Shown one piece after another: positions 38,311 to 38,988 of a stretch of 64,000 nucleotides of DNA. The translations under genes and the position numbers were made by a program. Every line of letters starts with the position of its first letter. The stretch's first letter is position 1. The notes beneath the pieces are model-generated. The model ran no database searches. It saw nothing but the letters and a program-made list of their open reading frames with translations, and had not been told where the DNA came from. Source of the stretch: Enterobacteria phage vB_EcoM_IME341; the sequence record MH051917; one strand, written 5' to 3'.

Positions 38311-38533
38311 ACAAACTACCGAACAGAAACTGCAATCCGAAATCGTTCTTCTGAAATCCCGTATTCTTGATACCCAGGACGCCGTTGCTCAAGCTCAGCA
38401 GGAATCTCGTATCCTTCAGGAAGCCCTTGGTAAAATCTGCCACGCGGTTGGTATTGAAGGTGAGCAGATTAAAATCGATGATATCATCGATGCCGTTCAG
38501 GCCCTGATTCCAGAAGCTTCTGACGAAGAATAA
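38303..38533 (+). CDS. 57A: tail fibre assembly chaperone gp57A
   Basis: 76 aa coiled-coil; synteny. Confidence 0.8.
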
Positions 38534-38988
38534 TGAAAACTGAAGATTTTGCTCAAGGTCTATACGTTGCTGCAAAATTCTCTGAATTAACTTTAGATGC
38601 GCTGGAAAACCTTCAGCGCACTTTAAAGGTTCCTAATCCAGTTCCTCGTGAAAAATTCCATTCTACAATCTGCTATTCAAGAGTCAACGTTCCATACACC
38701 GTTGCATCCGGAAGTTTTGAAGTTGCTTCGACCGGACATCTTGAAGTGTGGAAACATGGTGATTCTCCTGTCCTGGTATTGGTTCTCAATTCAGAGTATC
38801 TTAAATGCCGCCATCAGTATGCTCGTACCTTAGGTGCTACGCACGATTTTGATGATTATACCCCTCATATCACCCTGTCTTATAATGTAGGACCACTTAG
38901 CTTTAGTGGAGATGTCCAGATTCCTGTTGTTTTAGACAGAGAATATAAAGAACCCTTGAAGCTCGACTGGGCCGAGGATTTAAAATGA
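38533..38988 (+). CDS. 57B: gp57B; 2H phosphoesterase with two H-x-T motifs (anti-CBASS Acb1 type)
   Basis: 151 aa; HSTICY and HITLSY motifs; synteny after 57A. Confidence 0.7.

Follow-up and report, generated by a model that had tools for sequence, protein, structure and literature searches.

Acb1, the product of T4 gene 57B and the founding member of its family, was isolated through its cGAMP-cleaving activity, and deletion of the gene abolishes that activity in infected lysates (PMC9117128). Cleavage is metal-independent and acts on 3'-5' adenosine-containing cyclic di- and trinucleotides, among them 3'3'-cGAMP, cUA as well as cAAA, whereas cGG, cA4, and 3'2'-cGAMP are not cleaved (PMC9117128). 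The reaction proceeds by way of a 2',3'-cyclic phosphate to a linear 3'-phosphate, so that 3'3'-cGAMP yields GpAp, and Acb1 blocks activation of the effectors Cap5, Cap4, and CapV (PMC9117128). T4 lacking acb1 shows a plating loss of more than 300-fold on CBASS hosts and otherwise grows as wild type (PMC9117128). A transposon screen found T4 57B dispensable on E. coli K-12, with depletion seen on a CBASS host; the gene is conditionally essential on the CBASS host only (bioRxiv 10.1101/2025.11.20.689424). All nine of the further, more divergent Acb1 homologues cleave 3'3'-cGAMP and cAAA. Hobbs et al. suggest that cleavage of cAAA might also counter type III CRISPR (PMC9117128).

The catalytic tetrad of T4 Acb1 has the form HxT/HxT and comprises H44, T46, H113, and T115 (Hobbs et al., Nature 2022, PMC9117128). 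An H44A substitution abolishes activity, and the H44A/H113A double mutant is catalytically dead (PMC9117128). The aromatic residues Y12, W74, F107, and W147 stack on the bases, E141 contacts adenine N6, and residues 145-152 form a C-terminal lid, which in Acb1 of Erwinia phage FBB1 is shut over the ligand (7T27, with 3'3'-cGAMP; 7T26 is the apo form) (PMC9117128). T4 Acb1 from which the lid has been deleted can no longer trigger Panoptes cell death, a result read by its authors as showing that the lid is required for catalysis (bioRxiv 10.1101/2025.08.21.671373). Two other anti-CBASS proteins serve as points of comparison. PDE-9, a 2H phosphodiesterase (PDB 9Q2G/9Q2Y, deposited as "Anti-CBASS protein Acb1"), falls in the same structural group as T4 Acb1; it has the 2H fold and two catalytic histidines and degrades 3'3'-cGAMP, but its lid is N-terminal and its poor cleavage of 2'3'-c-di-AMP leaves Panoptes untriggered (bioRxiv 10.1101/2025.08.21.671373). 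Acb2 (T4 vs.4) likewise neutralizes CBASS signals, but it has an unrelated fold and sequesters the signals rather than cleaving them; unlike acb1, it is what sets off Panoptes in T4 (PMC12657218).

We analyzed a 64,000-nt stretch of DNA (the window) recorded as Enterobacteria phage vB_EcoM_IME341 (MH051917), which by sequence comparison is an IME08-like Dhakavirus (JS98/IME08 group, Straboviridae). The 2-kb neighborhood of gene 57B is 99.3% identical to Escherichia phage IME08, and the 57B coding sequence is nucleotide-identical to that of IME08. In a 20-kb comparison, coverage of the query by any one record stops at about 85%, which makes the genome a mosaic relative and not IME08 itself. The 57B ORF, which an earlier note on this DNA had placed exactly to the base, starts with ATG, stops with TGA, and encodes 151 amino acids. 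The features used below are as follows.

35566..35573, + strand: T4-type late-promoter consensus TATAAATA upstream of gene 4, a perfect match.
38303..38533, + strand: gene 57A, tail-fiber chaperone (Pfam GP57, E 2.6e-26).
38533..38988, + strand: acb1 (gene 57B) coding sequence, matched by Pfam PF23474, PHROG 755, PDB 7T26, and T4 NP_049750.1.
38659..38667, + strand: predicted catalytic motif 1, H43-S44-T45, corresponding to H44/T46 of T4 Acb1 in the alignment of 10 homologues.
38866..38874, + strand: predicted catalytic motif 2, H112-I113-T114, corresponding to H113/T115 of T4 Acb1 in the same alignment.
38962..38985, + strand: predicted C-terminal lid, residues 144-151 (LDWAEDLK) with the stacking residue W146, equivalent to T4 145-152.
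38985-39194, 39273-39497, 39500-39772, 42384-42848, 51246-51548, and 52068-52367, all + strand: internal-protein-type ORFs, identified by an N-terminal signature.

Both hexapeptides reported in the earlier note are present in the 57B protein: residues 43-48 (nt 38659-38676) read HSTICY, and residues 112-117 (nt 38866-38883) read HITLSY. The 69 residues between HST (43) and HIT (112) agree with the spacing of about 60-80 that characterizes the 2H superfamily. The note had taken this pair of H-x-T motifs as the mark of a 2H enzyme of the Acb1 type. That proposal stands insofar as the pair aligns with the tetrad of T4 and FBB1 Acb1, but the pair alone does not suffice for it. The protein contains 6 His, 10 Thr, and 11 Ser residues, and at least two H-x-[TS] triplets occurred in 19.7% of 20,000 composition-preserving shuffles (P = 0.20); two such triplets are also found in 7 of the 72 window ORFs of at least 100 amino acids. 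The loose H-x-T/S pair was a good lead, yet weak and insufficient as stand-alone evidence. The extended pattern H-x-T-[LIVM]-x-Y appeared twice in none of the 20,000 shuffles and, among window ORFs of at least 100 amino acids, in 57B alone. Because the loose pair lies within chance, significance is carried by the full-length family match.

That match is extensive. The Pfam Acb1 profile (PF23474) aligns with residues 8-149 over all of its length (positions 1-144 of 144) with an E value of 1.2e-58 and 197.4 bits against a cutoff of 27, and PHROG 755 matches with an E value of 4e-66. The best PDB match is 7T26/7T27 (E 1.6e-58), with about 65% identity to FBB1 Acb1 over 140 of 144 residues. Relative to T4 gp57B (NP_049750.1), the protein is 85% identical over its full length, with 23 substitutions; the equation of T4 gene 57B with Acb1, on which the earlier note had relied, is secured by the activity-guided fractionation that identified the T4 protein. 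We infer a 2H phosphoesterase fold for the window protein, a different one being very unlikely given the roughly 65% identity to the 2H-fold structure 7T26. A single-sequence AlphaFold2 model of the protein had a mean pLDDT of 40.5 and a pTM of 0.32, values too low for it to bear on the fold. Sequence similarity to PDE-9 is marginal (E 0.023).

The window protein is one residue shorter than T4 Acb1 at the N terminus, and each of its residue numbers is therefore one lower than in T4. We aligned 10 homologues from phages of Escherichia, Erwinia, Serratia, Aeromonas, Acinetobacter, Vibrio, Klebsiella, and Salicola, with identities down to 27%. The tetrad (H43, T45, H112, and T114) is identical to that of T4 and invariant in all 10 sequences, the complete set of invariant columns being G9, Y11, H43, T45, S49, V82, R93, G101, Y109, P111, H112, T114, and E137. 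The residues corresponding to the stacking aromatics and the adenine-contacting glutamate of T4 (Y12, W74, F107, W147, and E141) are likewise identical in the window protein, where they are Y11, W73, F106, W146, and E140. FBB1 Acb1 shares the HxT/HxT tetrad and the lid Trp but has Phe and Tyr in place of Trp73 and Phe106, positions that are aromatic in all three proteins. The lid matches T4 at seven of eight positions (LDWAEDLK versus LDWADDLK), the one change, E148D, being conservative. None of the 23 differences from T4 falls on a catalytic, stacking, or adenine-contact residue. They lie mainly at the N terminus (2-4, 7, 8), in loops (56-58, 67, 75-80), and on two helix surfaces (26, 30, 32, 86, 91, 95, 99), with F42 and E148 as the remaining sites.

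Every feature of the Acb1 family that can be assessed from sequence is found in 57B, and the earlier Acb1 reading is supported. Since every ligand-contacting residue is the same as in T4, the same activity would be expected. Taking the homology, residue conservation, synteny, and purifying selection computed here together with the chemistry, substrate range, and counter-defense phenotype established for T4 and FBB1, the window ORF is very probably a functional orthologue of T4 Acb1, that is, a small metal-independent 2H phosphodiesterase. By analogy with these enzymes, the bases of a cyclic di- or trinucleotide would stack on Y11, W73, F106, and W146, E140 would read the adenine N6, and the C-terminal lid would shut on the ligand. 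The enzyme would bend the ligand in such a way that the strained adenosine 2'-OH then attacks the 3'-5' phosphodiester over H43, T45, H112, and T114. The predicted intermediate is a 2',3'-cyclic phosphate, hydrolysis of which would give a linear 3'-phosphate such as GpAp from 3'3'-cGAMP. Removal of 3'3'-cGAMP, cUA, cAAA, cAAG, and similar signals would keep CBASS effectors inactive, and the infected cell would be spared suicide before phage release.

The gene has been maintained under constraint. Window 57B is 72% identical to its T4 and T6 counterparts at the DNA level; against these, pN is 0.138 and pS about 0.75, and dN/dS is about 0.04 in the comparison with T6. The saturation of pS alongside a low pN indicates strong purifying selection on the protein. 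A tblastn search of 50,697 phage records gave a homologue for 1,469 of them, with at least 80% of the query covered in 1,460 of these.

Of the other explanations considered, the sole one to retain some life is a shift in substrate preference. The protein would then have the Acb1 fold and a main target other than the CBASS signals cleaved by the T4 enzyme, as through an altered di- or trinucleotide preference, action on the cA3 of type III CRISPR, or a tendency either to avoid or to target 2'3'-c-di-AMP, the Panoptes decoy. The enzyme core determines the selectivity of viral 2H phosphodiesterases, which differs among members of the structural group of T4 Acb1 (bioRxiv 10.1101/2025.08.21.671373), and Hobbs et al. 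proposed a type III CRISPR role through cAAA (PMC9117128). In the window protein, F42 (I43 in T4) adjoins the catalytic His and the 75-80 loop is rewritten just after the stacking Trp. Against such a shift, all known ligand-contact residues match T4, the nine more divergent homologues all retain cleavage of 3'3'-cGAMP and cAAA, and we found no sequence sign of such a change in window 57B; we regard a different main target as decidedly improbable. Doherty et al. attribute substrate preference to the 2H core and not to the lid, and report that T4 Acb1 cleaves 2'3'-c-di-AMP fast and triggers Panoptes on overexpression, whereas PDE-9 does not (bioRxiv 10.1101/2025.08.21.671373). During phage infection, deletion of acb1 left Panoptes defense unchanged (PMC12657218). 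As preference depends on the core, the exact spectrum of an 85%-identical variant is an extrapolation from T4. That the 23 core and loop substitutions, F42 and the 75-80 loop included, have tuned the substrate profile of the Dhakavirus enzyme unlike that of T4 is unlikely; a profile retuned in this way may, for example, cleave less of the 2'3'-c-di-AMP decoy and so escape Panoptes-type guards while still defeating CBASS. If so, the retuned Acb1 would act alongside an Acb2 sponge encoded 14.6 kb downstream.

A LigT-like enzyme, either a 2'-5' RNA ligase or an RNA 2',3'-cyclic phosphodiesterase acting on RNA ends, as in tRNA repair, would also carry the paired H-x-T/S motifs of the 2H superfamily. 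PHROG 755 is named "RNA ligase", as is the RefSeq product, and Pfam 2_5_RNA_ligase2 (PF13563) gives a weak match to 57B (E 0.028). That match is confined to residues 61-122 and, at 14.9 bits, falls below the cutoff of 27, whereas the Acb1 profile reaches 197 bits. LigT-type proteins lack the Acb1-specific stacking residues and lid, whereas the aromatics, the E141 equivalent, and the lid are all kept in window 57B. The T4 orthologue, moreover, was purified by cGAMP cleavage, an activity that deletion removes from lysates (PMC9117128), and ligase activity is unreported for Acb1 in the literature cited here. An RNA-directed role is extremely improbable, and the assignment to Acb1 is retained.

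The locus itself is compact. Genes 4-2-3-1-57A-57B run in tight succession on the + strand; gene 2 encodes the DNA end protector, gene 3 the tail-completion protein, gene 1 the dNMP kinase, and gene 57A the tail-fiber chaperone. The neighbor that the earlier note had named as 57A matches the GP57 family and lies directly upstream of acb1, and the conserved position that it had claimed beside 57A holds in nine of the 10 phage loci that we examined. The order 3-1-57A-57B recurs in T4, T6, IME08, Serratia phage Muldoon, Aeromonas phage 50AhydR13PP, Acinetobacter phage KARL-1, Vibrio phage D484, RB16, and Klebsiella phage KMI7, so that the 57A-57B adjacency spans phages of six genera (Escherichia, Serratia, Aeromonas, Acinetobacter, Vibrio, and Klebsiella); the sole exception is the jumbo Salicola phage SCTP-2, which lacks the 57A-57B order. 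The window has the typical, though not defining, acb1 locus, after the dNMP kinase and 57A genes and beside internal-protein genes, and in T4 the gene occupies the equivalent place, behind genes 1 and 57A and immediately ahead of internal-protein genes. That 57B is instead a tail-fiber assembly factor partnering the co-transcribed gp57A, as the historical gene name, the stop/start overlap, and the adjacency conserved in T4-like phages might suggest, is next to impossible in view of the predicted enzyme fold, intact active site, and purifying selection, the wild-type growth of T4 delta-acb1 without CBASS (PMC9117128), and the tolerance of 57B transposon insertions on E. coli K-12 (bioRxiv 10.1101/2025.11.20.689424).

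At the junction of the two genes (GAATAATGAAA), the TAA stop of 57A and the ATG of acb1 share one base (TAATG), and inspection of the junction revealed no clear Shine–Dalgarno sequence upstream of acb1. The T4 junction differs in sequence but has an equivalent overlap, ATGA. From the overlap, the lack of a Shine–Dalgarno sequence at the junction, and the arrangement in T4, it is reasonable to suppose that acb1 is translationally coupled to 57A, and probably it is. At the 3' end of acb1, the start of a 69-amino acid ORF runs into the stop codon (ATGA); in T4, an intergenic gap separates the gene from ipI.

Transcripts of T4 acb1 are middle/late (bioRxiv 10.64898/2026.03.30.715471), and cells infected with T4 begin to show cleavage activity at about 15 min (PMC9117128). 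By analogy, the window gene is probably expressed in the middle/late period. The match to TATAAATA at 35566 is the only perfect + strand late-promoter match upstream of the 4-2-3-1-57A-57B run and is a candidate for late transcription of acb1. Counts of sigma-70 promoters (21 found versus 22.6 expected) and of terminators (six found versus 4.8 expected) were at chance level, so neither a dedicated acb1 promoter nor a terminator can be claimed. The interval 35000-39300 contains no MotA-box-like TGCTT[TC]A. An Rfam scan of 36000-43000 found no family overlapping acb1 on either strand, and only two tRNAs downstream; antisense to acb1, there is nothing larger than a 38-amino acid minus-strand ORF.

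The late-promoter consensus occurs back to back on opposite strands, at 35566 (+) and 35581 (−), and this pair (35566-35588) lies in the short gap that separates the divergent blocks of gene 53 and gene 4. The window contains 15 perfect matches to TATAAATA, of which 11 occupy the minus strand within 4.8-26.3 kb, as would fit a block of late structural genes.

Six + strand ORFs begin with MKTY(Q/N)EF(I/L)(A/T)E, a start common to T4 IPII and IPIII, which we take to be the capsid-targeting sequence of the T4 internal proteins. Injected internal proteins include the anti-restriction protein IPI, and on the basis of the shared signature the six ORFs are candidate injected internal proteins. Three of them lie directly 3' of acb1, the first being the 69-amino acid ORF that overlaps its stop (PHROG 23867, unknown function). 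For T4, an acb1-ipI "anti-defense island" has been noted, and the signature ORFs after acb1 echo it. The stretch containing the ORFs at 38985-39194 and 39273-39497 is unannotated in the IME08 RefSeq record.

Two near-identical promoter-like elements (39208-39235 and 39776-39804, + strand), each composed of TTTACA, a 16-17-nt spacer, and a TG-extended TACTAT, are situated just upstream of the ORFs at 39273 (internal-protein-like) and 39829 (65 amino acids, without the signature). They resemble a GTTTACA-type element after T4 57B and could be early promoters that open a new transcription unit after acb1 and the 69-amino acid ORF. Farther downstream, two tRNA genes (41243-41316 and 42010-42081, + strand; RF00005, 53.9 and 48.8 bits) follow trna.x-like ORFs. 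The IME08 annotation has three tRNAs at the equivalent place, and these close relatives may therefore differ in their tRNA clusters.

The products of denV (51609-52022, + strand) and ipII (51246-51545) are 97% and 93% identical to their T4 counterparts. The flanking genes e (75%) and nudE (60%) are much more diverged from T4, as are vs.1, regB, and tk.4 farther downstream (54-67%). Identity of denV and ipII so far above that of their neighbors (59-75%) suggests that 51246-52022 is a segment recently exchanged between a Tequatrovirus and the window Dhakavirus.

An Acb2 (vs.4) homologue of 92 amino acids is encoded at 53556-53834 (+ strand). It is 65% identical to T4 vs.4 (tblastn E 2e-32), matches Pfam Acb2_Tad1_hairpin (E 4.9e-16), and has T4-like neighbors (vs.3, regB, vs.1, and tk.4). 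With this homologue, both of the anti-CBASS proteins known from T4 are represented in the phage, at a distance of 14.6 kb from each other.

A sequence identical to window 57B is already present in GenBank and RefSeq (IME08), and the protein adds no new biology, since accounts of its family, structure, mechanism, and phenotype appeared in 2022. The available portion of the supplementary text of Hobbs et al. (273 homologues) makes no mention of IME08, JS98, or Dhakavirus. Annotation lags behind the literature. In RefSeq, the 57B protein of IME08, T4, T6, and many other phages goes by the name "RNA ligase", and public records elsewhere read "hypothetical protein"; the former label derives from distant 2H-superfamily similarity and not from experiment, and it persists for T4 in NC_000866 although the protein has been published as Acb1 since 2022. 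The IME08 RefSeq entry (NC_014260) begins the 57B coding sequence (6982-7440) at an ATA ("IMKTED..."), one codon before the real ATG. An NCBIfam scan returned no family for Acb1, for the Acb2 homologue, or for the downstream 69-amino acid ORF. The practical value of the present analysis is one of annotation, concerning the "RNA ligase" names, the NCBIfam gap, and the IME08 ATA start. The two predicted proteins would give this Dhakavirus the same two-pronged anti-CBASS equipment as T4, an Acb1 nuclease and an Acb2 sponge, which is relevant to host-range prediction and to the choice of therapeutic phages against CBASS-bearing E. coli.
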